Assembly (NCBI RefSeq): GCF_000014265.1
Contig: NC_008312.1
Location: 570,001-602,000, forward strand
Direction of reading: 5' to 3'
Length of the DNA: 32,000 bases
Source: Trichodesmium erythraeum IMS101
GTDB taxonomy: Bacteria; Cyanobacteriota; Cyanobacteriia; Cyanobacteriales; Microcoleaceae
Shown: positions 656-28,646 of the stretch, piece by piece
Layout of the letters: the number at the start of each line of letters is the position of its first letter
How positions within the stretch are numbered: position 1 is the stretch's first letter
Made by a program: the position numbers and the translations under genes
The notes under the pieces: model-generated
The model's database searches: none
What the model was told of the DNA's origin: nothing
Seen by the model: the letters and a program-made list of their open reading frames with translations, nothing else

Positions 656-658
656 TTT

Positions 659-11641: not shown

Positions 11642-11687
11642 ATAATATTAAGTTCTGGTATACTATCATTTTATTCCATCTTTAAAT

Positions 11688-13598: not shown

Positions 13599-13607
13599 TG
13601 ATATAAT
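13599..13607 (+). promoter_or_regulatory. Candidate extended -10 promoter (TGaTATAAT) for the TPS-CHAT operon
   Basis: Exact TGnTATAAT at 13599..13607, about 85 nt upstream of the TpsB GTG start. There is no good -35, which is compatible with an extended -10 promoter. Confidence 0.35.
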
Positions 13608-13691
13608 TCTTAAAAGCCTCAGTTAAACTAAGAAAGAAACATTGAGGTTTTATATCAGTTTTATCAAGTAATATATAAAGGTAGAATTTAA

Positions 13692-15479
13692 GTGTTTGAG
13701 AAATTTTCCCAGGAAAGGTGGCTAATTTTGCCCATATTTCTAACTGTTTTGGGGAGCCCTGTTAAAGTGTCTGCTCATCCGGTCTTGATTTCTAGTCAAG
13801 ATCCAGAAATAGCTAGGACTTTCTGGCTATCTCGGACTAATACTAGCTCTTTGGCTCAAGTTCCTGCTCCCATTCCTCCTAAAACTCCGGAACCCCCTCT
13901 TCCTAAATTTCCTATTCAGCTAGAGTCTCCCCAACTTGATATTACTCCACCCGGAGCTTCAGAGAATGAATTAGAAAACTCTGAACCTTATCTACGGGTG
14001 AAGATTAATAAGTTTGAATTTGTCGGTTACACGGCATTTACCAAGGAAGAATTAGAGGAGGTGGTTAAACCTTTTACTGAGCGACCTATTACCTTTGCTG
14101 AACTCCTCCAAGCTGAGAAAGCGGTGACTGATAAATACGTTCAGGCCGGTTATATCAATTCCGGAGCCGTAATCTTAGCTGGACAAAATCTCAAGGATGG
14201 GGTAGTAAAGATAAAGATTATTGAAGGGGAAATAGAAGATATTCAGGTAACCGTAACAGGACGCTTGAACCCCAACTATGTCCGTAGCCGGTTAGCTCTA
14301 GCTACGGAAAAGCCCTTTGATCAGAATAAGTTACTTCGGGCTCTCCAATTATTACAGCTTGACCCCCTAATAGCTATTATTAAAGCAGAGGTATCAGCTG
14401 GACCCCTTCCCCAATCTAGTTTGCTGACTGTCAGTGTTACCCAGGCAGACTCTTTTAGTATTGAATCTTTTGCTAACAATAGTCGCGCTCCTAATGTGGG
14501 CAGCTTTCAACGGGGTCTTCGGTTAAAGCAGGGAAATTTATTGGGTTTTGGTGATGGACTAAACGCGAGCTATACAAATTCTGACGGTAGTAACAATTTT
14601 AGTTTTAACTACACTATTCCGTTTAATGCCCGCAATGGTACGATTCAACTTACTACAGAATTAACTGATACTCGTGTAGTTGAATCTCCTTTCGATGACC
14701 TTGATATTATGGGAGAGTCCCAATACTACGAACTGACAGTGCGCCAACCTATTATCCAATTTCCTACCCAAGAATTGGCTCTGGGTTTAACTTTTTATCG
14801 ACAAAACCGTGAGAGTGAACTATTGGGAGAACCTTTTCCTCTATCTCCTGGTGCTAATGAGAAGGGGGAAACACGAATCTCGGCGATTCGACTTTTCCAA
14901 GATTGGGTTAAACGGAATCAGGCAGAAGTATTTGCTGTTCGTTCTCAATTTAGTTTGGGAGTGGGGGCTTTCAATGCTACCATTAATGATGACCTCCCCG
15001 ATAGTCGCTTTTTTAGTTGGCGAGGACAAGGACAGTATGTGCGACGTTTAGCTAAGAATTCGGATTCTTTGCTGGTGGTGCGCACAAATATCCAGTTGGC
15101 TGATAGAGGTTTGTTACCTGTAGAACAGTTTCGTATTGGTGGTGTTAATAGTGTTAGGGGTTATCGCCAAGATTTATCGTTTACTGATAATGGACTTTTT
15201 TTAGGCACTGAGGTCCGACTGCCTATTATGCGCTGGGATAATGTAGAGGGAGTTTTGCAGATAGTTCCTTTTGTGGATTTTGGAGTCGGTTGGAACAGTT
15301 CTGATTTGCCTGAACCAGAGCACAATAGTCTGGCAGGAGTCGGTTTTGGGTTACTATGGCAGATGAGCGATCGCCTCAGCGCCCGCTTTGATTGGGGTAT
15401 ACCTTTGATGGACGTTACTTCGGAGGAAAAAACGTTACAGGAAAATGGTCTTTATTTTACCATTGATGCTAAATTTTAG
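13692..15479 (+). CDS. ShlB/FhaC/HecB-family two-partner-secretion outer-membrane transporter (TpsB)
   Basis: GTG start. Signal peptide ...VLGSPVKVSA|HP. POTRA region (RVKINKFEFVGYTAFTKEELEEVVKPF...GYINSGAVIL...VKIKIIEGEIEDI). The C-terminal half is rich in beta-barrel strands (FRIGGVNSVRGY) and ends with a terminal aromatic residue, ...YFTIDAKF. Confidence 0.88.
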   Translation: MFEKFSQERWLILPIFLTVLGSPVKVSAHPVLISSQDPEIARTFWLSRTNTSSLAQVPAPIPPKTPEPPLPKFPIQLESPQLDITPPGASENELENSEPYLRVKINKFEFVGYTAFTKEELEEVVKPFTERPITFAELLQAEKAVTDKYVQAGYINSGAVILAGQNLKDGVVKIKIIEGEIEDIQVTVTGRLNPNYVRSRLALATEKPFDQNKLLRALQLLQLDPLIAIIKAEVSAGPLPQSSLLTVSVTQADSFSIESFANNSRAPNVGSFQRGLRLKQGNLLGFGDGLNASYTNSDGSNNFSFNYTIPFNARNGTIQLTTELTDTRVVESPFDDLDIMGESQYYELTVRQPIIQFPTQELALGLTFYRQNRESELLGEPFPLSPGANEKGETRISAIRLFQDWVKRNQAEVFAVRSQFSLGVGAFNATINDDLPDSRFFSWRGQGQYVRRLAKNSDSLLVVRTNIQLADRGLLPVEQFRIGGVNSVRGYRQDLSFTDNGLFLGTEVRLPIMRWDNVEGVLQIVPFVDFGVGWNSSDLPEPEHNSLAGVGFGLLWQMSDRLSARFDWGIPLMDVTSEEKTLQENGLYFTIDAKF

Positions 15480-15491
15480 AGGGATAAAATT

Positions 15492-18400
15492 ATGGACAAA
15501 TTTCGATGTCAGCCTAAATTAAGTGCTTTTGTTGCTTTGGCCTTTTCTTTGTCGCCAATTGTTGCGACTGCCCAAATTGTTCCTGATGACACTTTGGGTA
15601 AGGAGAGTTCGGTGGTGGTTCCTGATAATATTAAAGGTATTCCCAGTGAACGTCTGGAAGGAGGGGCAATTCGTGATGGTAATCTGTTCCACAGTTTCGG
15701 AGAATTTAATGTTGGGGAGGGACAAGGAGCTTATTTTGCTAATCCTGCTTTGATTGAGAATATATTCACCAGGGTGACTGGGACTAATGTGTCTAACCTT
15801 CTGGGAACTTTGGGAGTGTTGGGTAATGCTAACCTATTTCTGATTAATCCCAACGGCGTTATTTTTGGTCCTAATGCTAGCTTAGATTTGCAGGGGTCTT
15901 TTGTAGTTAGTAGCGCTGAGAGTTTTGTTTTCAACAATTTTGAGTTTAGTGCCTCTAATCCCCAAGCACCACCTTTATTGACGATAAATATTCCCCTGGG
16001 TTTGCGGTTTCAAGAGAATCCGGGACCGATAAGTGCTAGGGCTACTAGTGAGCTTAAGGTAGGACCAAGGCAAACTTTGGGGCTGTTGGGGGGTGAAGTT
16101 AGGTTGGATGGTACTGTCATTGAATCTCCGGGAACTCAAGTAGAGTTGGGGAGTCTCGCTGTTCCTGGGGTAGTGGAACTAAATGAGGATTTAAGTTTCA
16201 TTTTTCCTGAAGGGGCGGCGCGAGGGGATATATTTTTAGGGAATGAGGCGGTAATTAATGTCCGTAGTGGAGGGGGTGGAAGTATAACTATCAAGGCCCA
16301 GAATGTAGATGTTGTGGGCGGAAGTGAACTTCTGGCAGGAATAAGTGAAGGGTTAGGCTCCCCTGAAGCTCAGGGAGGTGATATTGAGATTAATGCTACT
16401 GGTAGAATTAATTTAGCTGATAACAGCTTGATTGATAATGAGGTCGAAGAAAATGCTGTGGGCAACAGTGGTAATATTAAAATTAAGACTGGTGCACTTT
16501 CAGTTAATAATGGCTCAATTATAGGTACTACCATCTCCGGAGAAGGAACTGCTGGCAGTGTGACTATTGAAGCGAGTGACGCTGTAGTCTTGGATGGAGT
16601 AAGAGACTTAGACATTTTAACTGGAGTAAGTAGCAGTGTGGAAGAAGGAGCAGAAGGGAATGGAGGGGTTATCACTATTACCACCGGCTCTCTGGAAGTT
16701 AAAAATGGTGCTGAGATACTTTCCATTAACTGGGGTAAAGGAAATGCAGGGACTGTGAATATTAATGCTACTGAGACTGTCGTCTTGGATGGAGGAAACT
16801 CAGAATTTTCCACTGGAATAGCTACCAGTCTGGAAGAAGGAGCAGAAGGGAAAGCAGGGGTTGTCACTATTACCACAGGCTCTCTGGAAGTTAAAAATGG
16901 TGCTATAATAGATTCCCTTACTTTGGGTAAAGGAGACGCAGGGGCTGTGAATATTAATGCTACTGAGACTGTCGTCTTGGATGGAGAAAACTCAGAATTT
17001 GCTACTGGAGTAAATAGCGATGCGGATCCAGGATCAGAAGGGAATGCAGGGGGTGTTACTATTACCACAGGCTCTCTGGAAGTTAAAAATGGTGCTGTGA
17101 TAGGTGCCGTTACCTTTAGTAAAGGAGATGCAGGGACTGTGAATATTAATGCTACTGAGACTGTCGTCTTGGATGGAGGAGACTCAGAAATTTTAACTGG
17201 AGTAAATAGCAGTGTAGCACCAGGAGCAGAAGGGAATGCAGGGGGTGTTACTATTACCACCGGCTCTCTGGAAGTTAAAAATGGTGCTGTGATAGGTGCC
17301 GTTACCTTTAGTAAAGGAGATGCAGGGACTGTGAATATTAATGCTACTGAGACTGTCGTCTTGGATAGAGGAGACTCAGAATTTTTAACTGTAGTAGCTA
17401 GCAGTGTAGCACCAGGAGCAGAAGGGAAGGCAGGGGGTGTTACTATTACCACCGGCTCTCTGGAAGTTAAAAATGGTGCAGAGATAGAAGCCAGTACCTT
17501 TAGTAAAGGAGATGCAGGGACTGTGAATATTAACGCTACTGAGACTGTAGTCTTGGATGGAGAAAACTCAGAAATTTTGACTGGAGTAACTAGCAGTGTG
17601 GAAGAAGGAGCAGAAGGGAAGGCAGGGGGTGTTACGGTTACCACCGGCTCTCTGGAAGTTAAAAATGGTGCTCAGCTACTTGCCGTTACCTTTGGTAAAG
17701 GAGATGCAGGGACTGTGAATATTAATGCTACTGAGACTGTAATCTTGGATGGAGGAGACTCAGAAATTTTAACTGTAGTGGCTAGCGGTGTAGCACAAGG
17801 AGCAGAAGGGAATGCAGGGGGTGTTACTATTACTACCGGCTCTCTGGAAGTTAAAAATGGTGCTGGGATAGCTGCCGATACTCTTCCTGAGTCCACAGGG
17901 AATGGTAGCGACATCTCCATTGACGCCACCAAAGTTACTATCACCAATAGCTCTGAAATAGTTGTAAGCAGCGCAGGACAGGGCAACAGTGGTAATATAT
18001 TCCTCAGTGCTGGGGACCTCTTCCTTGATCGTGGTTCTAAAGTCTCTGCCATTACTGCTAGTGGCCAAGGAGGTAACATGACTTTCAATATTGCCAATCT
18101 CTTCAGCTTGCGAAACAACAGTCCCATCTCAACTACGGCAGGAGGGACAGGTAATGGTGGAAACATCAACCTATCGACTGAATTTTTCCTCGCCAGAGAC
18201 GACAGCGACATCACTGCCAATGCTTTTGAAGGCAACGGTGGCAATATATCGATTGCAACTCAAGGTATTTTTAGCTTCCCTAATAGCACCATTGATGCTA
18301 GCTCACAACTAGGAATTGATGGAGTTATCGAAATCAATACCCCTGATATTGATCCTAGTCAGGGATTAATTAAGTTGTCAGAAAACGTGGTAGATCCTGA

Positions 18401-18713
18401 CCAATTGATTGCCCAAAATCCATGCCTACAGGGAGAAGAAAGCGAATATATCATCACGGGGCGAGGGGGTTTGTCTCCCAGTCCTGCTCAAACCCTAAAC
18501 AGCGACCCCTTAGAAGTGGGATTAGTGGAAGCAGCCACAGGGACGGCAGCCACTGTTACCCCACCGCCACCACCGACTTCTACTGCCCAAATTGTTCCCG
18601 CCAAAGGGTGGAAACTTAATGAAAAAGGTGAGGTGATCTTAGTGAGTTACGACCCCACTAATACCCAGGTTCAAAAGCACAGAGCTAATCCTGCTACCTG
18701 TCAGCCTCGCTGA
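15492..18713 (+). CDS. Filamentous-haemagglutinin-like TpsA exoprotein (TPS domain plus beta-helical repeats)
   Basis: Signal peptide ...SPIVATA|QIVP. TPS-domain motifs are GNLFHSFGEFNV and ANLFLINPNGVIFG. It is Gly/Asn/Thr/Val-rich, with seven 64-aa tandem units. The C-terminal tail reads NPC-LQGEESEYIITGRGGLSPSP...PPPPP...ATCQPR. It starts 12 nt after the TpsB stop, with AGAGGG 8 nt upstream. Confidence 0.9.
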   Translation: MDKFRCQPKLSAFVALAFSLSPIVATAQIVPDDTLGKESSVVVPDNIKGIPSERLEGGAIRDGNLFHSFGEFNVGEGQGAYFANPALIENIFTRVTGTNVSNLLGTLGVLGNANLFLINPNGVIFGPNASLDLQGSFVVSSAESFVFNNFEFSASNPQAPPLLTINIPLGLRFQENPGPISARATSELKVGPRQTLGLLGGEVRLDGTVIESPGTQVELGSLAVPGVVELNEDLSFIFPEGAARGDIFLGNEAVINVRSGGGGSITIKAQNVDVVGGSELLAGISEGLGSPEAQGGDIEINATGRINLADNSLIDNEVEENAVGNSGNIKIKTGALSVNNGSIIGTTISGEGTAGSVTIEASDAVVLDGVRDLDILTGVSSSVEEGAEGNGGVITITTGSLEVKNGAEILSINWGKGNAGTVNINATETVVLDGGNSEFSTGIATSLEEGAEGKAGVVTITTGSLEVKNGAIIDSLTLGKGDAGAVNINATETVVLDGENSEFATGVNSDADPGSEGNAGGVTITTGSLEVKNGAVIGAVTFSKGDAGTVNINATETVVLDGGDSEILTGVNSSVAPGAEGNAGGVTITTGSLEVKNGAVIGAVTFSKGDAGTVNINATETVVLDRGDSEFLTVVASSVAPGAEGKAGGVTITTGSLEVKNGAEIEASTFSKGDAGTVNINATETVVLDGENSEILTGVTSSVEEGAEGKAGGVTVTTGSLEVKNGAQLLAVTFGKGDAGTVNINATETVILDGGDSEILTVVASGVAQGAEGNAGGVTITTGSLEVKNGAGIAADTLPESTGNGSDISIDATKVTITNSSEIVVSSAGQGNSGNIFLSAGDLFLDRGSKVSAITASGQGGNMTFNIANLFSLRNNSPISTTAGGTGNGGNINLSTEFFLARDDSDITANAFEGNGGNISIATQGIFSFPNSTIDASSQLGIDGVIEINTPDIDPSQGLIKLSENVVDPDQLIAQNPCLQGEESEYIITGRGGLSPSPAQTLNSDPLEVGLVEAATGTAATVTPPPPPTSTAQIVPAKGWKLNEKGEVILVSYDPTNTQVQKHRANPATCQPR
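16548..17891 (+). repeat. Seven in-frame tandem repeats of 192 bp (64 aa) inside the TpsA gene
   Basis: Unit starts are at 16548, 16740, 16932, 17124, 17316, 17508 and 17700, an exact 192-bp period. The consensus is G(D/N)AGTVNINATETVVLDGG.SE..TGV.S.V..GAEG.AGGVTITTGSLEVKNGA.I....F.K. Units at 17124 and 17316 differ at only about 6 nucleotide positions. Further degenerate units flank the array. Confidence 0.9.
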
Positions 18714-18748
18714 GAAAATTCACAACTGACAACTGATGAGGAAAAAGA

Positions 18749-21631
18749 ATGAAGCCCAAAAATACCCCAAATAATTGGAAATTCCTTAAAACACTAATTA
18801 ACCAACGGCATTTCCTCCAAAGTCTGCTGTTGTTAATTTTATTTTTCATAGGCCTAGCAATTCCCCCAGTGGTTGCTCAGATGAGCCCCCAAACTCCCAT
18901 ATTCCAAATTCAACCTGATAGCTTCAGCCTGGAAAAACAGGCTAGAAGCCTCTATCAAACCAGAAACTTTCCTGAAGCCGCCAGATTTTGGGAACAAGCG
19001 GTAGTCGCCTTTGCTAAACAAGGGGATCAACTCAACCATGCCATGGCACTAAGCAACCTTTCCCTAACTCGTCAACAACTTCGAGAGTGGGAATTAGCAC
19101 AAAAGGCTATTGACGAAAGCCTAAATATCCTACAAACCCTAGAAAAAACACCAGAAACACAGCGCATCCTCGCTCAAACCCTGGATATTCAAGGAAAGCA
19201 GTTGCGGGAGGTAGAAAAGCCGGAAAAAGCTCTAGAAACTTGGCAACAAGCTGCTGACCTGTATCGGGAAATTGACAGACCAGAAGCAGCCGCCCAGAAT
19301 GAGTTTAACCAAATTCAGGTACTCCAAGACTTAGGACTTTATCCCCGCGCTTGCAAGAGTTTATTATCAATAATAGAGCTGAATGTTCAAAATTGTCAAG
19401 CATTAAGGAAATTAACCCCAGAAGATTTAAAGCAACAACTCCAAGTATTTGCTCAACGCCCCGCTTCCTTACTCGAAGTCCAGAAATTGCGAAATCTCGG
19501 TGATGTACTGCGAGTTTTAGGTCAGCCAACTAACTCGGAAGTTCTATTAGAAGCTAGTTTGGAGGGAGCTAAACAATTAGAACCTTTCCCAAGCAAAAAC
19601 GCCGAAATTGCTGCTATCTATCTCAGCTTAGGCAATACCGCTCGTGTCCAAGGCAAAAATGACAATGCTAGAGAAGCTTTAACATTCTACCAAGAGGCAG
19701 TTAAAGCAGCTACTGAGTCAGGAACAGCTACCCTCATAATTCAAGCTCAACTCAATGAACTGAGTCTGTTGGTGAAAAAGCAGTCCTGGCCTCAAGTGCC
19801 AGATTTGGTGTCTCAAATTGAACCCCAATTAAATAATTTGCCTCCTAGTCGCGCCGCTATTAATGCCCGACTTAATTTCGCCCAAAGCCTATTCTGCTGG
19901 AAAGAGCCAACCCTCAGTCAGGAAGAACGTCAACTCTCATCTCCTATTATTGAGCAGTGCAGTTTAGCCAGGGATAGAGAGAAAAATAATCAACTTCAGC
20001 CCTCAGATGTTCCGAAATGGGAAGATATTGCCGAAATAGTTACTACCGCTGTCAAGCAGTCTCAAACCTTGGGCAACAAGAGAGCAGAGGCTTATGCTCT
20101 CGGTTATCAGGGCAGCGTTGAGCAACAAATGGAAAAATTTTCAGAAGCTCAAGATTTAACCATAAAAGCTCTGAACATATCATCATCTTTCCAGTTGCCA
20201 GACATTGCCTATCTCTGGCAGTGGCAACTGGGGCGCTTGCGGGAAATTCAGGGAGAGGAAGATGACGCGATCGCTGCTTATAATACCGCCTTTGCCACCC
20301 TTCAGTCCCTGCGGGGAGACTTAGTTTCTATTGATCAGGAAGTTCAATTTACTTTTCGCGACAGTGTAGAACCTGTCTATCGAGAATATGTCGATTTACT
20401 CTTGCGAGGGGAAGATATCTCTCAAGACAACCTTAAACGAGCTCGTGAGGTGATTGAAGCCCTGCAACTAGCTGAACTGAATGACTTTTTTGGCAATGCT
20501 TGTTTGGAAGCAAAACCCAAGAAAATTGACACAGTGATTAAAGAAACTTCCTCCCCAACAGCATTCTTCTACGCAGTTATTTTGAAAGACCGTTTAGAAG
20601 TAATTTTGGCTTTATCAGGAGGCAAAGAATTACAACATTACCATACTAACAAATCTCAAGATGAAGTTAAAGCAATCAAAAAAACAATAAAAGACCTACG
20701 CACATTTCTCTCCAATAAGACGACGGCTTTGGAAGATGTGAAAAAACAATCCCATAAAATATATGATTGGCTAATCAAGAAAGCTCAAAAACAACTAGAA
20801 ACAAATGGGATCCAGACCTTGGTTTTTGTTCTAGATAGTCCATTACGTAATATTCCTATGGCAGTTCTATACAATATCGAAACTGAGCGATATTTGGTAG
20901 AAGACTACGCCATCGCCTTCACCCCAGGCCTGCAACTTTTGAGTCCTCAACCTGTCAAACAATTTCGCTTAAATGGGTTAACAGGAGGTGTGAGCGAAGA
21001 GCGAGAAACTGAGTCAATAAATTTTGGTAGAACGAAACCACAAGATTTTACTGAAATTCCCTTTGTCAAGGAGGAATTAAAAAAAATTCGCTCAGTAATA
21101 TCTAGTTCAACAGAAACTCTATTGAATGAGAAATTTCTTAAAGAGCGACTGCAAAATGAACTCAATTCAGCTAACTTCAACACCGTTCACCTATCAACTC
21201 ACGGCAAATTTAGTTCTAATATAGAAGACACCTATCTTTTAGCTTGGAATGAACTACTCAAAATGGAAGATTTAGAAAACTTGTTCCAAATTAAACTGGC
21301 TAATCAGTCAATTCCCATTGAATTACTCGTCCTGAGTGCTTGCCAAACAGCCAAAGGCGATGAGCGAGCAATATTGGGAATGGCTGGGGTAGCAGTGAAA
21401 GCGGGTGCCCGTAGCACACTAGCCACCTTGTGGCCAGTCTTTGATGAATCCACGGCCGAATTCATGTTCTTATTTTATCAGCAGTTAATCCAGAACCAGG
21501 CTCAAAATATGACCAAAGCTGAAGCACTTCGTCAAGCTCAACTAAAATTATGGGCTCAGAAAAAACCAGGAAAACGGTGGAATCACCCCTATTATTGGGC
21601 TCCCTTTATTTTGCTAGGTAATTGGCTATAA
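18749..21631 (+). CDS. Exported TPR-repeat / CHAT-domain (caspase-fold) protease
   Basis: N-terminal signal or anchor LLLLILFFIGLAIPPVVAQ|M. About 500 aa of TPR-like helical repeats follow. The C-terminal CHAT domain has an intact dyad: H818 in VHLSTHGKF (21200..21202) and C865 in LVLSACQTA (21341..21343), ending HPYYWAPFILLGNW. GAGGA lies 6 nt upstream, and the gene starts 35 nt after the TpsA stop. Confidence 0.88.
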   Translation: MKPKNTPNNWKFLKTLINQRHFLQSLLLLILFFIGLAIPPVVAQMSPQTPIFQIQPDSFSLEKQARSLYQTRNFPEAARFWEQAVVAFAKQGDQLNHAMALSNLSLTRQQLREWELAQKAIDESLNILQTLEKTPETQRILAQTLDIQGKQLREVEKPEKALETWQQAADLYREIDRPEAAAQNEFNQIQVLQDLGLYPRACKSLLSIIELNVQNCQALRKLTPEDLKQQLQVFAQRPASLLEVQKLRNLGDVLRVLGQPTNSEVLLEASLEGAKQLEPFPSKNAEIAAIYLSLGNTARVQGKNDNAREALTFYQEAVKAATESGTATLIIQAQLNELSLLVKKQSWPQVPDLVSQIEPQLNNLPPSRAAINARLNFAQSLFCWKEPTLSQEERQLSSPIIEQCSLARDREKNNQLQPSDVPKWEDIAEIVTTAVKQSQTLGNKRAEAYALGYQGSVEQQMEKFSEAQDLTIKALNISSSFQLPDIAYLWQWQLGRLREIQGEEDDAIAAYNTAFATLQSLRGDLVSIDQEVQFTFRDSVEPVYREYVDLLLRGEDISQDNLKRAREVIEALQLAELNDFFGNACLEAKPKKIDTVIKETSSPTAFFYAVILKDRLEVILALSGGKELQHYHTNKSQDEVKAIKKTIKDLRTFLSNKTTALEDVKKQSHKIYDWLIKKAQKQLETNGIQTLVFVLDSPLRNIPMAVLYNIETERYLVEDYAIAFTPGLQLLSPQPVKQFRLNGLTGGVSEERETESINFGRTKPQDFTEIPFVKEELKKIRSVISSSTETLLNEKFLKERLQNELNSANFNTVHLSTHGKFSSNIEDTYLLAWNELLKMEDLENLFQIKLANQSIPIELLVLSACQTAKGDERAILGMAGVAVKAGARSTLATLWPVFDESTAEFMFLFYQQLIQNQAQNMTKAEALRQAQLKLWAQKKPGKRWNHPYYWAPFILLGNWL

Positions 21632-21649
21632 GCTTGAGGATACAAGCCA

Positions 21650-22510
21650 TTATTTTTCCGGGATACAACAGGATAATATAGGTTCTTCCGCGAAACTTTC
21701 TAAGCCAGCAGCCTTCAACAACTTCTTCCAGTATCCTTTCAGTTCGGGTTCTTGTGGCTCACGACGGCGGCGTTCAGCTAAATCAGTCAGAGCATCATGC
21801 CAAATACCTTTATTAGCATAGTCACTATAAATCTGGAAATTAGAATTCCCCTTAACCCTTTGCACGTAACCTTCTAGAACAACGTTCGCATCTGTATCTT
21901 CTTGATTACAGAAAACTAGGAATAACCAAAGATAGGGACGTTCAATTTCCAGACTCTTCGGTAAATTATCCGGCAGGGGAATACTGACAATTCCAGGAGT
22001 AGCAGAAAAATTAAAAGTAGTTCGGTAAATATCCCTTTCTCCTTCTTCATCTTGGAGGACAAATTGTCCAGTTTGTACCTCCTGAGAATTGTAAGGAATA
22101 TAAAACCAAAATGTAGGAGAATTGCTAACTGTCAAACCCATGTTTTCCGGGACCAAAGCAGTCATCGGCGGATCTACTTTTGGGCAGTCAGGATTCTTAG
22201 TTCCTCCAGAGGTTCGTGTATTTGGTCTCCCTGTCCCAGAAAAATCGATGTTATCAGAATCGTTTTTTTTATCGGTTTTTTTTTCGCTTAAAAGCTTTAC
22301 CTTAACCGAGTCAGAATTGAGAATTAAGCTAGGTTCCTGTCCCTCCGCTGAGGGAAAATATATAATTAAGCTAGCAACACTCCAAGCAATAGTGAAAGCA
22401 GCAAAAGAAAACCCTAACAAAACTAATTTATTTTGATTCATTACTCCTAATCCTATATTTATGTAACTTACAGCAATTCCCGTTGTTATTATATACACCA
22501 ACGGGAGCAA
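21650..22510 (-). CDS. DUF928-domain exported protein (likely true start at 22441)
   Basis: Family-typical core: GTGRPNTRTSGGTKNPDC...MTALVPENMGLTVSNSPTFWFYIP...FVLQDE...PGIVSIPLP...YLWLFLVFCN...LEGYVQRV. The internal Met at 22441 (MNQNKLVLLGFSFAAFTIAWSVASL) gives a clean signal peptide and follows AGGAG. Its stop is 18 bp from the convergent CHAT stop. Confidence 0.8.
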   Translation of the reverse strand: MLPLVYIITTGIAVSYINIGLGVMNQNKLVLLGFSFAAFTIAWSVASLIIYFPSAEGQEPSLILNSDSVKVKLLSEKKTDKKNDSDNIDFSGTGRPNTRTSGGTKNPDCPKVDPPMTALVPENMGLTVSNSPTFWFYIPYNSQEVQTGQFVLQDEEGERDIYRTTFNFSATPGIVSIPLPDNLPKSLEIERPYLWLFLVFCNQEDTDANVVLEGYVQRVKGNSNFQIYSDYANKGIWHDALTDLAERRRREPQEPELKGYWKKLLKAAGLESFAEEPILSCCIPEK

Positions 22511-22555
22511 TATAGTTGCACTACAAGATTTTCATTATTTACCATGTATATCATT

Positions 22556-24907
22556 TTACAGAAACATGGTGTCATTAATTGTTTTATTAGAGAAAATTAT
22601 CGCTATCCCAGTTAAAAAGAAACCTAGTATCGAGGGAACCAGTGGCAGCCATCCGCCAATTTCTATAAAAACTAAAAAGCAGATTCCCCATAACGTAACA
22701 GGTACTGCTACTACAGTTATCCCAATGAACCACCTTCCAAAAACTTGCCTGCTCCAACAAATACCCAGTATTCCTCCTATAAAAGACCAACCCCAAACCC
22801 AAATATTTTCTAAGGCCTGCGGCCACCACCACAAAAGTGTTCGCCCATCTAAGACAGCACTGAGAATCTGACTGATCATGTGACCATGAATCATTATTCC
22901 TGGTATCTTCTTATTATAGGGAGTCAAATGCATATCTTCATAACCAACCTCAGCAGCATCAGTCCCAATGAGAACAATTTTGTTCTTGACCAGATGGGCG
23001 AGTTTAGAGTCACGGGATCCATCAAGTAATTCCTTAAGAGTCATCGTTTCCGCAATTTTCTCAGAAGAACGGTAATTGAGAAGAATTTGATAACCTAGTG
23101 CTTCCCTTTTAGGCAAATGATATCCCCCAGCATCCTTCTCTAATTTATGGAAAAGGACCTCATTAATTTTTAAGTTACCTTGATTAAATTCTCCTGCTCT
23201 CTTTTCCATGCCTTTTTCTTTTAGATAACGAATTGCTATCCTCAGACTAAAAGAATAACTTGAACAAAGGGAGTTTTCAGGAATTGACATCCCCAACAAC
23301 TGACGTCGAATAACGCCACCAGAGTCTTGAGGAAAATCAGCAAAACCTATTCGTTGTTTTTCTTGAATTTCAGGAGGAGGTTCTATGCCAATACTATTAT
23401 TTTTTTCTTCCTTAATTTTACATACAGCGATCAAGCTTTTATTCTGGGCGAGCTGAGTTTTTAAATGTTCATCTTTAGCAGGAAAATCTCGAAAGATATC
23501 TAGACCGATAACTAGAGGTTTATAGGTATTTAATTTGTCTAAAACTTTAATAATTGCTTGGTCTGATAGTGATTCTCCTCCTATTTCCCACCCCATTTCC
23601 TTTTGATATTTAATATCTTCTGGAGTAACTGTAACAATTAGCAAGCGTTTATCTGGACCTTCATCTCTCCTCCATCTTATCATCTGATCGAAAGCCTGTA
23701 GTTTGAATTGTTGTACTCTCTCTGGAGGCTTTGTTACTAAAGTAGTTATGAATATGCTTATTAGCAGTACAATAGACAGAATAGTATATGATTTTAATAT
23801 TTTAAAAAAATTTTGTTGATATTTGCCTTGATTTATCTCTCTTTTCAGGTTAATGTTTGGTAATTCTTTAAAGATTATTTCAGGCTCTTCTTGGGCAATT
23901 CCTAATTTATTTTTTGGTTTTTCTATTTGATATTTACACTTAAATAAATTCTCTTTAGATTCATTTCTCCTAAACTGTAACTTTGGCTCTAGTTGAGTTT
24001 TTGCTAAAACAATATCATAAGCTTCTCCATGTAAAATGTGGATTTCTGGTTTCATACCACCGCCATATTTGAATTTGGGGATATTCTCTTTAACATATTT
24101 CGGTATATTAACTTCCAAAAACTTATAAAAAGAGTCAACTGTTACTTTTCCTTCTTCGTTAGCAGCATCACCATTTAAAGCTAATTGAGCATAGTAAGTA
24201 AAGATAGAAAGATCAGACTGATTTTCCATAAAATATGATTTTTGATCCCCTGCTGAAGAAGTAATAATTACTAATCCTTCTTTTTGTTTAATTTCAACTG
24301 AATTATCCGAACTTATTCCCTTAGATATGGCTTGATATCTTTGTTTTTGATTTAACAACTGTTGAATTAGTAAATTCTCTGCTGAATCATTTTTACCTTT
24401 ACTGTATCCTCGAACAAAAGCGCCTGAATAACATAAATCTAACAGCCATACTTGAGAATTAGAAGTACAATTTTTTATTTGTCGGTGGAAATAACTTGCT
24501 TCAATAGCTCCTGTAATTATTTCTGTATCCCTATCATAACTTGTCTCAGAAGTTGCGATATAAAAAGTTCCTTCTGCATCTGTAATACCGTGACTTGAAA
24601 CATAAATAAGTAAAGTATCTGATTTTTGAGACTCGTAAAAAAACTTGTTGATGGCATATTCCATGTCTTTTCTATCAAGATTTTCCTCCTGGATAACTTC
24701 AAACCCACCCTTTTCTTCCAAGCATTTTTTCATAACTTGAACGTCTTCTAGTGTTGGGGAGAAGTTATCTAATCCTTCACCAAATATTGTTATTCCAATT
24801 AATAAAGCACGTCTTCGTTCCATAACTTGTTGATGACATATTCCCTGTATTTTTTTATCAAGATTTTCATTCTTGATAACTTCAAATACCCCCCTTTTTT
24901 TTAGCAT
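22556..24907 (-). CDS. Peptidase-C14 caspase domain (N-terminal, cytoplasmic) fused to a CHASE2 transmembrane sensor; alternative start at 24823
   Basis: The caspase core is RRALLIGI...LLIYVSSHGI (H106, 24590..24592) ... WLLDLCYSGAF (C159, 24431..24433). TM1 is at about aa 366-392. The CHASE2-like periplasmic region begins RLLIVTVTPEDI...LVIGLDIFRDFPA. Three C-terminal TM helices follow, and the protein ends about 15 aa later with no C-terminal output domain. Residues 1-28 derive from a decayed duplicate, so Met29 (MERRRALLIG) may be the real start. Confidence 0.85.
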   Translation of the reverse strand: MLKKRGVFEVIKNENLDKKIQGICHQQVMERRRALLIGITIFGEGLDNFSPTLEDVQVMKKCLEEKGGFEVIQEENLDRKDMEYAINKFFYESQKSDTLLIYVSSHGITDAEGTFYIATSETSYDRDTEIITGAIEASYFHRQIKNCTSNSQVWLLDLCYSGAFVRGYSKGKNDSAENLLIQQLLNQKQRYQAISKGISSDNSVEIKQKEGLVIITSSAGDQKSYFMENQSDLSIFTYYAQLALNGDAANEEGKVTVDSFYKFLEVNIPKYVKENIPKFKYGGGMKPEIHILHGEAYDIVLAKTQLEPKLQFRRNESKENLFKCKYQIEKPKNKLGIAQEEPEIIFKELPNINLKREINQGKYQQNFFKILKSYTILSIVLLISIFITTLVTKPPERVQQFKLQAFDQMIRWRRDEGPDKRLLIVTVTPEDIKYQKEMGWEIGGESLSDQAIIKVLDKLNTYKPLVIGLDIFRDFPAKDEHLKTQLAQNKSLIAVCKIKEEKNNSIGIEPPPEIQEKQRIGFADFPQDSGGVIRRQLLGMSIPENSLCSSYSFSLRIAIRYLKEKGMEKRAGEFNQGNLKINEVLFHKLEKDAGGYHLPKREALGYQILLNYRSSEKIAETMTLKELLDGSRDSKLAHLVKNKIVLIGTDAAEVGYEDMHLTPYNKKIPGIMIHGHMISQILSAVLDGRTLLWWWPQALENIWVWGWSFIGGILGICWSRQVFGRWFIGITVVAVPVTLWGICFLVFIEIGGWLPLVPSILGFFLTGIAIIFSNKTINDTMFL

Positions 24908-25006
24908 TTATTGATAACTTAAATTTCTTCCAGTGTGGGGGGGGAAGTTATCTAATTCTTCACAAAATGTTATTATTCAAATTAATAAAGCACGTCTTCC
25001 TTCCAT
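24824..25006 (-). pseudogene. Decayed upstream copy of a 183-bp tandem duplication of the caspase gene 5' end
   Basis: The minus strand from 25006 reads ATGGAAGGAAGACGTGCTTTATTAATTTGA..., against the functional copy from 24823, ATGGAACGAAGACGTGCTTTATTAATTGGA... The similarity continues for the full 183 bp (to ..ATCAACAAGTT). The upstream copy has a TGA at codon 10 and compensating single-nt indels at C8 and A8/G6 runs. Confidence 0.8.
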
Positions 25007-25023
25007 ATCTGTTAATCCAGATT

Positions 25024-25416
25024 TTAGATCATATTCTTAACTTCATGTAGTAAAGTATAAAACTCTTTATCAGAACAATTTTGTCTTTCTGCTTGAAAAA
25101 TTAAAGTACCATCTTCTCTGAAAAATTGTACTTTATACTTTCCATTTGTTTTTTCATCTACTAAACTCATTGACCGAGTGATTCTCTCTTCTTCTGCTTC
25201 TAATTCTAGCTCTATAATTCCTGGTAAGTAACCTCCCCCTTTATTTGGTTCAGATGAATTTGATTCAGGCTCAAGAATGCGTTTTACTTTTTCAATCACA
25301 TTCAAAAGTTTTAGCTGTTTCATTTGTTTCAAAAGCTTTATTGTTTCTGTCTCTAGTCTATTTGAATCAATATGTATCAGAGTTATAATAAGTTTAACAT
25401 TTGAAATATTATTCAT
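25024..25416 (-). CDS. Hypothetical 130-aa soluble protein (possible adaptor; weak resemblance to EACC1-type components)
   Basis: The ORF sits between the WD40 gene and the caspase-CHASE2 gene on the same strand. Its stop is 17 nt upstream of the ancestral caspase ATG (25006). It has no TM segment or signal peptide. The charged central segment is EPESNSSEPNKGGGYLPGIIELELEAEEE and the C-terminal region is beta-rich (KYKVQFFREDGTLIFQAER). Confidence 0.6.
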   Translation of the reverse strand: MNNISNVKLIITLIHIDSNRLETETIKLLKQMKQLKLLNVIEKVKRILEPESNSSEPNKGGGYLPGIIELELEAEEERITRSMSLVDEKTNGKYKVQFFREDGTLIFQAERQNCSDKEFYTLLHEVKNMI

Positions 25417-25538
25417 TAAGCTATATTTAATAAATTGAGTTTTTAAGTAAGATTTATGATAACATATTTATGGCAATAAAATCAACGAAAAATTCCCCCT
25501 TATGGCAAGGCTTTAGAGCTGATTTTTTTATTAATCTA

Positions 25539-26810
25539 TTACTGATTAATACTCGAAGGTTTCCAAGTACAAATATTTCCTTGGCTATTGCTACTAAGTA
25601 ATCTTTGAGAATGTTGACTAAATACAAGGCACTGAGTATAATTTGGATATGTCTCCAAAGTTTGTATAACATTGCTTTCACGCCAATTATGAATCTTAAT
25701 AGTCTGACTGTAACTAGCACTAGCCAGAGTTTGACTATCTGGACTAAAAGCCAATGAAAGAACTGCTTTTGAATGTTTCTCTAACTTTTTTATGAAAGTT
25801 CCCGAATTGAGATTCCAAAGATAAATCTCACCATCTTTCCCTCCACTAGCCACAACTTCATTATTTGGACTAATTGCTAGAGAAGTTACCCAATCTGAAT
25901 GTTGTTCTAAACTTTCTGATTCTGGAAAAGATATCCAATCTTCATAGTACTGATGAGGTTGATTATCTTTAGAAGGTACTCCCCAAGAATAAACCTTGCC
26001 ATCTTTTCCCCCGCTAACTAGCATGCCACCATTTGGGCTCATAGCTAAACACATAACTCCATCTTTATGCTTAGACAAACAACCTACTTGTTTTATTTCT
26101 TTAGGCAAAGACCAAACCTTAATTTGCTCACTCTCATAGGAATTAATAAATAAATACTCTCCATTTGGACTCAGAGACATAGATTCAATAGCATAAGGAT
26201 TAGACCCCAATTCTTTTTGATGCAAAGTCCATTTAACTTCTTGCGTCTGTAAATTCCAAATTTTTATTTTTTCGTCATAACTGCCACTAATTAATTCTTC
26301 CTCTGAACTGAAAACAAGACATGAAACATCTTTTTCATGAGCTTTTAATGAACATTTCACTTTTCGTTTCTGTAAATCCCAAATTTTTATTTCTCCGTCA
26401 TAACTCCCGCTAGCAAGAGTGTTTCCATTTGGACTCAGAGCTATACTGCCAACACTATTTGCATGACCTGTGAGAGTATATTCATTTTCAAGTAATGTAT
26501 TTTCCCAAGGATTTGAGACAAACTCATATTGATCTATTCCCAACGACTTCCAATCAGTTACTTTTCTCCAATCAATATCAATAGCTTGGCATAAGGCAAT
26601 GTAACCTTTAACTTCGATTGGCTTTTTGCTCTTAAATCGCTTCAATGTTGATACAGAAGTAACCCGTGCTTTATTATCAATGTGATTAGTAGCTTTTTCA
26701 AGCCAATCTAAATCATTCCAACTTGGATTATTTTTTTTTATTCTTGCAATATTATTTTTAATAATTTCCAACCCTTGTTCAGACAATTGTAAAGAACGCG
26801 GCCAACCCAT
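25539..26810 (-). CDS. HTH-like N-terminal domain plus seven-bladed WD40 repeat protein
   Basis: The N-terminus (LSEQGLEIIKNNI...VTSVSTLKRFKSKKPIEVKGYIALCQAIDIDWRKV) resembles the HTH-like module common at the N-termini of cyanobacterial WD40/STAND proteins. Seven WD40 units follow (for example LTGHANSVGSIALSPNGNTLASGSYDGEIKIWDL and LEQHSDWVTSLAISPNNEVVASGGKDGEIYLWNL). There is no NTPase domain between them. Confidence 0.85.
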   Translation of the reverse strand: MGWPRSLQLSEQGLEIIKNNIARIKKNNPSWNDLDWLEKATNHIDNKARVTSVSTLKRFKSKKPIEVKGYIALCQAIDIDWRKVTDWKSLGIDQYEFVSNPWENTLLENEYTLTGHANSVGSIALSPNGNTLASGSYDGEIKIWDLQKRKVKCSLKAHEKDVSCLVFSSEEELISGSYDEKIKIWNLQTQEVKWTLHQKELGSNPYAIESMSLSPNGEYLFINSYESEQIKVWSLPKEIKQVGCLSKHKDGVMCLAMSPNGGMLVSGGKDGKVYSWGVPSKDNQPHQYYEDWISFPESESLEQHSDWVTSLAISPNNEVVASGGKDGEIYLWNLNSGTFIKKLEKHSKAVLSLAFSPDSQTLASASYSQTIKIHNWRESNVIQTLETYPNYTQCLVFSQHSQRLLSSNSQGNICTWKPSSINQ

Positions 26811-27335
26811 AATTTTATCCTTTTACTTTCTTTATTGAGGTTAATTTTAGCCTCTTTAAGTATATTTGGGAAAAAAATCTATTGGACTATGGAGAGGGCA
26901 ATTTGATGCTCAAGCACCAGGGCAAGCTAGACTATCATTCCAGACAACACGGACACAACCTAGGTCACCTTGCTAATCGGTGTTTTTGTCCTAATTTGGA
27001 TATATACAGTACTTAAATCTTGCTTTCATAGAATGACTTTGAAACTAAAAAGCATAATCACATAAACATAACCAGTGGAAAAAAAATAAACTAAAAATTA
27101 ACCCGCTTATGGGCGAGGCTTGAAACCCAATTTTTCAGTAAATTATAACTTCGCTCTGACCTAAAAAGCTTGTATGGAGGGTCTCTACCTAACTCCTAAG
27201 TTCTGAATTCTACTCTCACCCATAAGACTTATTCAGTAAGCCCTATTTAGCTTTTTTTTTAACAAATAGTCTCTAATAAATAGTTAGGTTCAATTCATAA
27301 AAATATGCTGATCATATTCCATGTATTGAGACAAG

Positions 27336-27396
27336 TTCAGTAATGGTTCAGTTAAAGTTCAGTAATGGTTCAGTTGAAATTCAGTAATGGTTCAGT
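27336..27396 (+). promoter_or_regulatory. Phased array of six direct TTCAGT hexamers at exact 11-bp spacing (three 22-bp units)
   Basis: TTCAGT occurs at 27336, 27347, 27358, 27369, 27380 and 27391. The 22-bp unit is (A/G)GTTCAGTAATGGTTCAGTT(A/G)A, repeated three times over 27334..27399. The array lies 162 nt upstream of the sigma-factor ATG, in the divergent intergenic region shared with the WD40 operon. Confidence 0.6.
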
Positions 27397-27557
27397 TGAT
27401 ATACATCTACTAGAAAAATCAACTAAATTTAGTCAAAAATTGACCCTCAACTGCTCTTGTTTTTTAGGGAAAAATCAAGTATTATTAAGCTACTTTAAAA
27501 ATCAGAAAGTCTGGCAATTTTAAAAAAAACTAGTGTATCTAACAATAATTTTTTGTA

Positions 27558-28646
27558 ATGTTAAACGAACAGAAAACAACTAGAAATATTGATTCACTAT
27601 TTTGGCTAGAATGGCAAAAGCATCAAGAGTATCTCTACCGTTGCTGTGTCAAATGGATGGGAGGTAATTCTACAAATGCTGAGGATGCTTTAAGTATGGC
27701 CATGCTCAAGGCTAGGGAAAAAATACAACAGTCTTCCAGAAGAATTGAGAACTTAAAACCTTGGCTGGCTAAACTAACCTATAACCTTTGTATGGATCTA
27801 CTGAAGGAGTCTGCTCGATATAATCAAGGGGTTGAGGATCTAGACTTGGTTATTTCTGGCGCTGATGGGAGCACTCAAGGAGGAGATCCATTTTTTGTTG
27901 TTGCCTACGAAGAACTAAAAGATTTTTGTAACTTGGCCATTGATGATTTGCCAAAGAGACTACGAGAAACTTTTGTTCTCCTTTATCAGAAACAATTCTC
28001 TTCTCAAGAAATAGCTGCAGAGTTGAATATTTCTGACTCTAATGTCCGTAAGCGTATTTCCCGGGGGCGGGCTATTTTGGAAAAAAGGCGCCAGAAAGAG
28101 TACGAAAAACAAGAAGAAATAGTTATTGTGGAGAATCAAAAAATAGAAAGTTCCCAACCTCAAGAGTTGGATACAGAAATTGTTACTGCTGAGATACCCC
28201 AAGAGACTATTTTATCTGAAGAGAAAAGTGAGCCTATTTTAGTTGAGGCCACGGTTGAGGAGGAGTTACGGGAAATAGAGACTTTTGGCAATGGAGGACA
28301 GCAGCTCTTTGCTCTATCTGTATTGTTGAAATTACTTAGGGTAGAGAATAAAAAGCCCAAGGGTGAGAAACAACAAAAATGTGGTCTACTTAGTAGATGC
28401 ACAAATATAGGACTGGCATTGCTGAGGGGCAGGATGAATATAAGTGGAGTCCGCATCCTGCTAACCCAAAAATATAAGAAACGGCTCAAATGGCTCACCC
28501 ACAAAGTGATAGAGGCTCAACCACATTATTTATACAATTTTGGCAAGGGGGAACTAAAAGCTTTAGAAAAACAGTTGAATTGGTTAATAATGGAGAATTT
28601 CCTAGGGCCTTCAGCAGCAAAACTGGTATATAAAGACTGCTGCTAG
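27558..28646 (+). CDS. ECF-type sigma-70 family factor with a roughly 185-aa C-terminal extension
   Basis: Region 2 is YLYRCCVKWMGGNSTNAEDALSMAMLKAREKI...KPWLAKLTYNLCMDLLKE. Region 4 HTH is LPKRLRETFVLLYQKQFSSQEIAAELNISDSNVRKRISRGRAILEKR. An acidic linker and a basic, Leu-rich tail ending KDCC follow; neither has a recognisable TM segment or known domain. Confidence 0.75.
   Translation: MLNEQKTTRNIDSLFWLEWQKHQEYLYRCCVKWMGGNSTNAEDALSMAMLKAREKIQQSSRRIENLKPWLAKLTYNLCMDLLKESARYNQGVEDLDLVISGADGSTQGGDPFFVVAYEELKDFCNLAIDDLPKRLRETFVLLYQKQFSSQEIAAELNISDSNVRKRISRGRAILEKRRQKEYEKQEEIVIVENQKIESSQPQELDTEIVTAEIPQETILSEEKSEPILVEATVEEELREIETFGNGGQQLFALSVLLKLLRVENKKPKGEKQQKCGLLSRCTNIGLALLRGRMNISGVRILLTQKYKKRLKWLTHKVIEAQPHYLYNFGKGELKALEKQLNWLIMENFLGPSAAKLVYKDCC

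Follow-up and report, generated by a model that had tools for sequence, protein, structure and literature searches.

A Trichodesmium locus that joins a cyanobacterial CHASE2-DUF928 envelope module to a p130/WD40/C14 caspase cassette: a possible trans-envelope protease-gated signalling system

The C14 orthocaspase-CHASE2 protein of Trichodesmium erythraeum IMS101 was already described, with its architecture and topology, in two studies (Jiang 2010, PMC2853523; Asplund-Samuelsson 2012, PMC3501461) which proposed it as a receptor-linked metacaspase, and a speculative receptor-caspase model also exists (PMC7475262). Both studies dealt with the protein alone, and its partners considered here (p130, WD40, DUF928, TPR-CHAT, TpsA and TpsB) were not described. 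A related type of system, in which EACC2, a caspase and a variable C-terminus (e.g. CHASE2) occur with an extracytoplasmic function (ECF) sigma factor and DUF1822, was predicted computationally by Kaur, Iyer, Burroughs and Aravind (2021, PMC8195603). In this work we analyzed the locus of the C14-CHASE2 receptor in a stretch of 32,000 nucleotides (nt) of the T. erythraeum IMS101 genome (NC_008312.1, positions 570,001 to 602,000), hereafter the window, and compared it with related loci of other cyanobacteria.

Gene order and homology show that the locus is of chimeric origin and that genes are genomically coupled inside each of two modules: an envelope module (module A) of CHASE2 receptor and DUF928 with linked TpsA and exported TPR-CHAT, and a cassette (module B) of WD40 protein, p130 and C14 caspase. 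The original prediction for this DNA saw one coherent cassette of two operons, which is replaced here by a fusion of two separately conserved modules. That this Trichodesmium-specific chimera works as a joint trans-envelope protease-gated signalling system is a reading to which we give about an even chance. The features of the locus, with the open reading frame (ORF) limits and the evidence in brackets, are as follows.

13692-15479, plus strand: TpsB, Omp85-family outer-membrane transporter of a two-partner secretion pair (Pfam)
15492-18713, plus strand: TpsA exoprotein (Pfam TPS, TIGR01901)
18749-21631, plus strand: exported TPR-CHAT protease with caspase fold (Pfam CHAT and TPR)
21632-21647, no strand given: terminator-like hairpin GCTTGAGGATACAAGC (GCTTG-AGGATA-CAAGC) with a 5-bp stem (consensus match only)
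21650-22441 (ORF to 22510), minus strand: DUF928 periplasmic protein, 263 amino acids (aa) from Met24 (Pfam DUF928)
22556-24823 (annotated start 24907), minus strand: C14 orthocaspase-CHASE2 membrane receptor, 755 aa from Met29 (Pfam)
24642-25007, minus strand: tandem duplication of 183 nt in 2 copies (Tandem Repeats Finder, TRF)
25024-25416, minus strand: p130, small soluble alpha+beta protein (no family match)
25539-26810, minus strand: WD40 beta-propeller protein with an N-terminal domain of about 100 aa (Pfam WD40)
27333-27398, plus strand: six copies of an 11-nt unit (repeat search, TRF)
27558-28646, plus strand: ECF-type sigma factor, divergent from the WD40 gene (TIGR02937)

All eight genes were recovered from the ORF list with the positions, strands and spacings of the original prediction, that is, spacers of 12 nt and 35 nt between the plus-strand genes and convergent stops 18 nt apart, the hairpin occupying this 18-nt space between the CHAT and DUF928 stop codons. 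Pfam profile search agrees with the domains it had assigned (ShlB/POTRA, TPS, CHAT, DUF928, C14, CHASE2, WD40 and sigma-70), the catalytic residues it had named (caspase Cys159 and CHAT Cys865) are present with both dyads intact, and the topology it had predicted is in accordance with a hydropathy scan of the window proteins, in which N-terminal signal-like segments were found in TpsB, TpsA, CHAT and DUF928 (from Met24) and hydrophobic segments were absent from p130, the WD40 protein and the sigma factor. Proteins identical to those of the window are encoded on Trichodesmium contigs from metagenomes and from metagenome-assembled genomes (MAGs), and the caspase-CHASE2 protein is identical to MCH2046935.1 of Trichodesmium sp. 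ALOHA_ZT_67.

Conservation of module A was examined in 80 DUF928 loci drawn from different genomes of cyanobacteria, the best of 219 that matched, taken with 10-kb flanks. Their six-frame ORFs were searched with the domains of the window by phmmer and BLAST, not with curated models for every ORF, and all ORFs were clustered. Loci with at least 2.5 kb of upstream sequence were taken as informative (n=71) and those with at least 9 kb on both sides as fully flanked (n=47). A CHASE2 gene lies directly upstream of the DUF928 gene on the same strand in 67 of the 71 informative loci, as it does in the window. CHASE2 is present in 44 of the fully flanked loci, a stand-alone TPR-CHAT protein in 33 and a TPS-domain protein in 23, and across all 80 loci CHAT is found in 50 and TPS in 32. 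Histidine kinases (11 of 80 loci) and ABC ATPases (8 of 80) show how often abundant families occur in the same loci, a yardstick which is an internal control and not the genome-wide background of CHAT and TPS. The position of the CHAT gene differs: it is convergent after DUF928, as in the window, in 16 loci, co-directional downstream in 17 and upstream in 16. Linkage which outlives rearrangement into three gene orders argues for functional coupling. TPS and CHAT can also be parts of a single protein, with the TPS secretion domain N-terminal and CHAT C-terminal (L079, 1786 aa, 15256-20613, minus strand; L085, 1925 aa, 11336-17110, plus strand; L numbers are our locus identifiers). The layout of the window recurs in Richelia sinica FACHB-800, where genes for CHASE2 and then DUF928 face those for TPR-CHAT, TpsA and TpsB, read back from the shared end, with a CHASE2 protein that is without a cytoplasmic domain. 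The 145-aa gene upstream of it was considered as a relative of p130 and rejected, not being p130-like. Adjacency of these genes in other genomes, which was the point on which the original prediction had staked itself, is thus well documented, with CHAT and TPS linked in most loci. From their genomic neighbourhood we can conclude that module A is a CHASE2 receptor with DUF928, coupled to TpsA and an exported TPR-CHAT protein, and that it is widespread in filamentous cyanobacteria; the window has the CHASE2-DUF928 adjacency, the linked exported TPR-CHAT and a TpsA with the C-terminal domain specific for this family.

A Nostoc punctiforme cluster with the series two WD40 / hypothetical / CHASE2 / DUF928 was previously taken as lineage-specific (Hu et al. 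2017, PMC5587647). Compared by gene description, this is the gene series of the minus strand of the window, and the CHASE2-DUF928 pair is near-universal among the DUF928 loci of our sample. The DUF928 protein (Pfam, 7e-51) most likely starts at Met24 (22441), with 263 aa as called in other assemblies, a start at the upstream TTG at 22510 being possible. Its AlphaFold2 model, made from an alignment of 42 sequences, has a mean predicted local distance difference test score (pLDDT) of 73.7, above 85 in the core and below 50 in the tail, and consists of a disordered N-terminal tail with the conserved motif GRPxxRTxGG(S/T)(R/K)xxC, a confident Ig-like beta-sandwich and a three-helix bundle, in that order. 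Foldseek gave only generic similarity to Ig-like domains, carbohydrate-binding modules and pilus chaperones, with a query-normalised template-modelling (TM) score of about 0.3.

The cytoplasmic heads carried by these receptors are diverse. Among 46 scanned DUF928-linked CHASE2 proteins we found CHAT in 40, AAA_35 in two, and tandem TIR, protein kinase, EAD1 and C14 in one each, the last of these being the window protein. The original prediction singled out a pair of caspase-fold proteases, one on either side of the inner membrane; both are present, but the combination of CHAT-CHASE2 with exported TPR-CHAT makes this the norm of the family and no peculiarity of this locus. The tandem TIR head is found in L041 (1-2688), and both receptors with the AAA_35 head (L068, 7138-9555; L076, 5667-8087) have a paralogous AAA_35 gene just upstream. 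In 61 of the 80 loci a DUF1822 gene lies upstream of CHAT-CHASE2, and before it comes a sigma-like gene which belongs to family c7 in 20 loci, where it matches sigma-70 region 4, or to family c4 in 26; this canonical combination of CHAT head, DUF1822 and sigma-like protein suggests a transcriptional output in other cyanobacteria. In many Nostoc loci (L032, L035, L039, L047, L048, L054, L060 and L081, at about 1-4000) the sigma-like gene is itself directly preceded by genes for a Pvc16_N/TIG protein and for an AAA ATPase, typical components of contractile injection systems.

The operon of sigma-like, DUF1822 and CHAT-CHASE2 genes in these canonical relatives of the window locus corresponds to the EACC2 systems (PMC8195603). 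In these systems and in the window, a caspase-superfamily domain stands N-terminal to a CHASE2 domain flanked by transmembrane segments, both come from multicellular cyanobacteria, and the logic proposed for them is a stimulus leading to protease activation. The window differs in having C14 and not CHAT, with a caspase which begins at about residue 3 of the true protein and is without an EACC2-like N-terminal region, and in having no DUF1822, related sigma factor or TRADD-N. No DUF1822 was found in the window with a hidden Markov model (HMM) from 63 ORFs, and no canonical sigma-like gene with HMMs from 27 and 21 ORFs, all at E<=10. The possibility that p130 is a split-off EACC2 was rejected, because the hhalign probability was 0.2% when p130 was compared with the first 175 residues of 31 canonical CHAT-CHASE2 proteins. 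The text of PMC8195603 has no mention of DUF928, TpsA or exported TPR-CHAT.

The receptor of the window matches Peptidase_C14 (2e-17, 64 bits against a cutoff of 21.4) and CHASE2 (1.4e-58, 199 bits, residues 387-713) in Pfam, and its catalytic dyad lies in SSHG 104-107 (His107) and DLC159YSG (Cys159). According to the hydropathy scan CHASE2 is preceded by one transmembrane segment (374-392) and followed by a hydrophobic cluster (about 700-772), and the C14 domain is predicted to be cytoplasmic and the CHASE2 domain periplasmic. The published IMS101 metacaspase-CHASE2 is of the same family, with 1+3 transmembrane topology, a cytoplasmic caspase and an external CHASE2. Fusion of C14 and CHASE2 occurs in Trichodesmium only, where lineages down to 86% identity keep the protein at full length and its dyad intact. 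One sister lineage (MAG_R04; L008, 251-729) has C14 and CHASE2 as separate ORFs with about 385 nt of real sequence between them, at the exact point of fusion. Over residues 31-365 the C14 domain shares 64% identity with a C14-TPR protein, similarity ending just before the first transmembrane segment, and it shares 60% with a Moorena C14 domain. A deletion at the CHASE2/DUF928 junction in MAG_R02 (L007) was considered as a sign of decay and rejected, because the scaffold has a gap filled with N at this place.

The caspase probably starts at Met29 (24823), because homologues align from residue 31 (their residue 4); other assemblies call a protein of 755 aa. Its 5' end is covered by the 183-nt tandem duplicate (83% matches), the upstream copy of which is decayed and has stop codons, and the annotated first 28 codons together with the upstream spacer belong to this decayed copy, the spacer reading MEGRRALLI followed by a stop where the gene reads MERRRALLIG. 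This duplication at the p130/caspase junction looks like a recombination scar.

Module B has the order N-domain-WD40, p130 and C14 with a sensor, and two further contexts contain it, one of them with a TPR sensor. Comparison of the proteins shows it as a unit which carries different sensors, the place of the sensor being taken in Trichodesmium by the CHASE2 receptor. The WD40 protein (Pfam WD40, 5e-59), encoded by the first gene of the cassette, is 54% identical over 413 aa, N-domain included, to the product of the gene upstream of p130 and C14-TPR in L098, and its WD40 domain is 55% identical over 301 aa, collinearly, to the WD40 part of the Moorena C14-WD40 protein encoded upstream of p133 in L093. 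For its first 105 residues no Pfam match at E<=10 and no match to a PDB sequence was found; the label of helix-turn-helix (HTH) which the original prediction gave to the N-terminal 100 residues is left without Pfam or PDB sequence support. Their sequence pattern resembles the XRE-like N-terminal modules of cyanobacteria; the HTH label is unverified. Relationship of this domain to the N-terminus of P0055, a protein described below, was considered and rejected as unsupported.

No match to p130 was found in Pfam, NCBIfam or PADLOC, with family searches carried to E<=10. An exhaustive phmmer search among 1.84 billion representatives gave two real relatives only. P0052 (Moorena sp. SIO3C2; L093) is encoded between the C14-WD40 gene and a second C14 gene, upstream of the latter, and P0055 has a TRADD-like_N domain (167-230) followed by a separate p130-like C-terminal domain (257-367). 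A third homologue is encoded 4 nt upstream of the C14-TPR gene (L090, L098), and a metagenome scan for p130 loci added one further Trichodesmium contig only. The family is thus very rare, and always encoded directly 5' of a related type of C14. In L098 the C14-TPR gene is directly followed by a gene for an 842-aa protein without a Pfam match (7222-9750) and then by a RES/Xre-like toxin-antitoxin pair. Lys59 and LPGI 64-67 are invariant in an alignment of four p130 sequences. The AlphaFold2 model made from three sequences (pLDDT 69.5), which like that of DUF928 is of moderate confidence, begins with a beta-alpha-beta unit; the disordered linker (49-62) comes next, and then four strands and a helix. 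Foldseek against PDB found nothing at E<=0.001, and the top matches, among them a pore-forming haemolysin (E about 0.2, TM score 0.35-0.39), are insignificant. Identity of p130 with EACC1, Pepco or Trypco was rejected, no Pfam or NCBIfam match being found even at E<=10, and identity with TRADD-N was rejected for want of a TRADD-like_N match.

The role of p130 is best approached through the EACC1 and Pepco modules (PMC7159879), in which cleavage turns EACC1 and Pepco into pore-forming toxins (Evans et al. 2025, bioRxiv 10.1101/2025.11.14.688446). As in these modules, in the window a small non-enzymatic protein is encoded directly 5' of a caspase-like protease with a variable sensor, and both small proteins consist of two halves divided by a linker, which in EACC1/Pepco is cleavable. 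Like the small proteins EACC1 and Pepco, p130 is encoded upstream of a caspase-sensor fusion, which makes it, by analogy, a candidate substrate or effector of the caspase. Three further findings point in the same direction: the best NCBIfam match of the C14 domain is NF047832 ('caspase, EACC1-associated type', 86 bits, under the cutoff of 140), the linker between the two halves contains Lys59, and the p130 domain is fused to TRADD-like_N in P0055. There are also differences from the EACC1 system, as p130 has neither an EACC1 match nor the conserved Gly-rich transmembrane helix and the caspase remains under the cutoff. Unlike EACC1/Pepco modules, the cassette has a third constant component, WD40, and its sensor in the window is periplasmic; a variable sensor (CHASE2 or TPR) was found here too.

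The plus-strand operon begins with a two-partner secretion pair, a type Vb arrangement well known from the FhaB/FhaC and CdiA/CdiB loci. TpsB has matches to ShlB (6.7e-27, 95 bits), POTRA_2 (4e-18, 65 bits) and Omp85 (9e-14, 52 bits), all over the Pfam cutoffs, and a signal-like hydrophobic segment at residues 10-28. TpsA matches Pfam TPS (4e-48, 165 bits) and TIGR01901 (81 bits against a cutoff of 29) and contains INPNGVIFG, a motif of the NPNG type; with a TpsB of POTRA and Omp85/ShlB barrel and a TpsA with signal and TPS domain, 12 nt apart, the window has a genuine two-partner secretion pair. The body of tpsA has an internal tandem repeat of 192 nt (64 aa) at 16582-17881, in 6.8 copies with 88% identity (TRF). 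In MAG_R02 (L007) tpsA appears as two overlapping ORFs at this region, which suggests instability of copy number or of assembly. The gene ends with a domain of about 140 aa (about 18280-18713) that has the motif TGRGGL(P/S)PSP and two Cys and is not recognised by Pfam. Linked TpsA proteins share in this domain TPDxDPSxGL, a Cys, F-x-(Y/I)-TGRGGLPPSP, IVEAxGW and a terminal Cys, and it is kept in 30 TpsA ORFs from 27 of the 80 loci. The window pair resembles FhaB/FhaC and CdiA/CdiB in the POTRA domain and Omp85 barrel of TpsB, in the TPS domain, NPNG motif and repetitive beta-helical body of TpsA, and in the adjacency of the genes. Unlike them, TpsA has no toxin, haemolysin or known adhesin C-terminus and has the cyanobacteria-specific domain of about 140 aa instead, the locus is coupled to exported CHAT, DUF928 and CHASE2, and in most related genomes TpsB is outside the locus, adjoining the envelope module in just three of 80 loci and in Richelia sinica.

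The third gene of the operon encodes the TPR-CHAT protein (Pfam CHAT, 5e-55, and TPR; dyad His819/Cys865), which has an N-terminal hydrophobic segment at residues 25-43, and a signal-like N-terminus is found in 30 of 31 full-length orthologues. It is 47% identical to the Richelia sinica orthologue over 957 aa. Its architecture of TPR and CHAT is shared with Craspase, in which the gRAMP-associated TPR-CHAT protein Csx29 cleaves Csx30 and releases a sigma factor. A caspase-fold switch cleaving a dedicated partner linked to a sigma factor is a Craspase feature which invites comparison, but the TPR-CHAT of the window is exported, has no CRISPR association and, where Craspase has an RNA-guided complex, is linked to a secreted TpsA.

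If the two modules work together, the following sequence of events can be envisaged. TpsB would export TpsA, the C-terminal domain of which would stay accessible in the periplasm, and TPR-CHAT would dock there or process it. A change in the state of TpsA, caused by contact, damage, failed secretion or phage attack, could alter the activity of CHAT, and this change could be read by a DUF928-CHASE2 complex, possibly via the disordered GRP..RT.GG tail of DUF928. Clustering of receptors would then activate the cytoplasmic caspase by induced proximity, and the caspase would cleave p130 in its disordered linker and release an active fragment, with the WD40 protein as scaffold or co-substrate. Lys59 would be the most likely site, because C14 orthocaspases favour basic P1 residues. 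The outcome would be a decision on cell fate, i.e. death, dormancy or a stress programme. In this general form, a surface-to-cytoplasm proteolytic relay as in the original prediction is a reasonable and fair reading of the anatomy of the locus. We consider as rather improbable the boldest version, a death-receptor-like pathway in which the TpsA filament would be an external probe for contact, damage or phage, its CHAT-processed end would be presented by DUF928 to CHASE2, and the fused caspase would cleave p130 after Lys59 into a toxic or pore-forming fragment on the WD40 scaffold; such regulated death in trichomes could trigger the collapse of blooms, and in other filamentous cyanobacteria the same receptor would drive CHAT, TIR or kinase heads.

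Several observations weigh against a joint signalling system. The links of the proposed relay are all genomic, and the linkage of CHAT and TPS was measured against the internal control of abundant families. In Richelia sinica and some lineages of Trichodesmium the complete envelope module comes with CHASE2 proteins that have no cytoplasmic domain, which means that the envelope module works without a fused output and that the fusion could contribute little. In 77 of the 80 loci there is no TpsB, and the contexts of module B amount to only about three independent ones. The putative effector role of p130 is drawn from position and analogy: the protein has no hydrophobic or amphipathic helix, family match or significant fold match, and with 86 bits against 140 its caspase is under the curated cutoff of the EACC1 type. 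Finally, the likeness between the DUF928 tail and the C-terminal motif of TpsA is only a short T-G-R-(G/P) string.

The same observations allow other explanations. The envelope module could be a circuit for quality control and feedback of TpsA secretion and not an external sensor, with an output that is regulatory, through a sigma-like factor in most species, and not lethal: CHAT would mature or degrade TpsA, as SphB1 does for FHA, DUF928-CHASE2 would report its build-up in the periplasm, and the caspase of Trichodesmium would replace a regulatory CHAT head. This is in accordance with DUF1822 in 61 of 80 loci and c4 or c7 sigma-like genes in 46, directly upstream of CHAT-CHASE2, with the TPS-CHAT fusions and the conserved TpsA C-terminus, which tie CHAT to TpsA, and with the CHASE2-only variants, which retain TpsA, CHAT and DUF928. 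However, TIR, EAD1 and caspase heads are typical of conflict and death systems and not of housekeeping feedback, the Trichodesmium cassette has neither DUF1822 nor an orthologous sigma factor, and the p130/C14 pair resembles protease-activated toxin modules; on balance we regard such a circuit as unlikely, if worth serious consideration. The conflict-type heads lead to another possibility, that TpsA and the periplasmic module sense phage adsorption or a breach of the envelope and that the caspase cleaves p130, so that the infected cell dies and the trichome is protected. A constant sensor with variable heads (CHAT, C14, TIR, EAD1, AAA_35) is a hallmark of conflict systems (PMC8195603, PMC7159879), modules of a small protein and a caspase are phage-triggered death effectors, the p130 domain is fused to TRADD-like_N in P0055, and Pvc16/AAA genes lie beside many Nostoc loci. 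Yet the original prediction held that this is not a known defence system, and PADLOC indeed finds no system match, only a weak generic caspase match (2e-5) and a WD40 repeat-type match; the module is near-universal and syntenic in filamentous cyanobacteria, unlike patchy defence islands, none of the known phage sensors is periplasmic with a CHASE2 domain, and the flanks in the window are housekeeping genes. An anti-phage or abortive infection function therefore seems to us quite unlikely.

It could also be argued that the TPS/CHAT operon and the CHASE2/DUF928 operon, with its caspase, are independent neighbours and that the C14-CHASE2 fusion is an accident without a role in signalling. The fusion is confined to Trichodesmium, where one sister lineage has it split, the 5' end of the fused gene bears a duplication scar, and among the 47 fully flanked loci 14 are without stand-alone CHAT and 24 without TPS within 10 kb. 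Such independence is nevertheless very unlikely in our estimation, given that linkage of CHAT and TPS with DUF928 holds through three gene orders and across cyanobacterial orders, that the fused protein is full-length with an intact dyad in Trichodesmium lineages to 86% identity and in IMS101 (PMC3501461), and that all seven genes are intact in the window.

Programmed cell death linked to metacaspases is thought to drive the collapse of Trichodesmium blooms, and we know of no triggers or metacaspase substrates of this death. The present comparison gives candidate partners to the sole receptor-linked caspase of Trichodesmium: TpsA, exported CHAT and DUF928 as possible input, p130 with its predicted site as possible substrate, and the WD40 protein as possible scaffold. 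DUF928, earlier a family without function, becomes the near-obligate partner of a subfamily of CHASE2 receptors, and across filamentous cyanobacteria this receptor is coupled to an exoprotein of type Vb and to a caspase-fold protease of the periplasm, a link between secretion and trans-membrane protease signalling. In this way the locus becomes a candidate, accessible to tests, for an outside-in pathway of the death-receptor type in a cyanobacterium that forms blooms, and Nostoc strains, which are genetically tractable, carry the envelope module.

The original prediction considered members of such clusters to be without assigned function. This holds for the databases, where their names are names of domains only, but the literature already covers parts of the locus (PMC2853523, PMC3501461, PMC8195603, PMC5587647). 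Full-text searches found no paper on CHAT domains together with CHASE2 or with two-partner secretion, and in the searchable literature neither the link of DUF928 with TpsA and exported CHAT nor the p130 cassette was found described. In relation to that literature the near-obligate CHASE2-DUF928 pairing, the coupling of TpsA and exported CHAT including TPS-CHAT fusions, the p130/WD40/C14 cassette and the fusion of modules in Trichodesmium are new.

Membership of the ECF sigma factor in the system, as assumed in the original prediction, is doubtful, since the gene is not a conserved partner of either module in L093-L095, L098 or the canonical loci. The protein matches Sigma70_r4_2 (9e-13) in Pfam, with region 2 under the cutoff, and NCBIfam sigma70-ECF (TIGR02937) with 63.8 bits against a cutoff of 42.9, and it has a C-terminal extension of about 180 aa; this extension was considered as TRADD-N or an anti-sigma domain, both rejected as there is no Pfam match. 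HMMs show it to be unrelated to the sigma-like genes of canonical loci. Its homologues, with variable C-terminal extensions, are common in filamentous cyanobacteria, those in Scytonema (L094) and a Trichodesmium paralogue (L095) stand in contexts unrelated to the system, and no sigma gene was found beside the cassette of module B in L093 and L098. The unusual repeat array upstream of the gene, noticed in the original prediction, is real: the 11-nt unit (GTTCAGTAATG-like) in six copies forms three 22-nt units (AAGTTCAGTAATGGTTCAGTTA) about 160 nt before the start codon, with the spacing of helical turns. It is identical in three other contigs of the same population, and its conservation is therefore uninformative.

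The flanks of the locus contain housekeeping genes with no relation to it, those for MiaB, a fused PyrF-PyrE protein, a BamE-like protein, CoaX (split) and an EamA transporter, as well as tRNA-Glu. An Rfam scan of the window found nothing except one tRNA, and a promoter scan gave a count equal to the shuffled expectation, which is uninformative. The gene for type III pantothenate kinase (CoaX, 5477-6270) is split into overlapping ORFs for the N-terminal (5830-6270) and C-terminal (5477-5899) parts, which suggests a frameshift or pseudogene. Just 3' of the sigma gene, at 28702-29158, lies a tandem repeat of 136 nt in 3.4 copies with 96% matches, the unit of which opens with the palindrome GCGATCGC (HIP1-like). 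It is followed at 29353-29778 by an ORF for a Gly/Ala/Ser-rich protein of 141 aa with a signal peptide and no match in the family libraries, an ORF which is also called beside the sigma gene in other assemblies.

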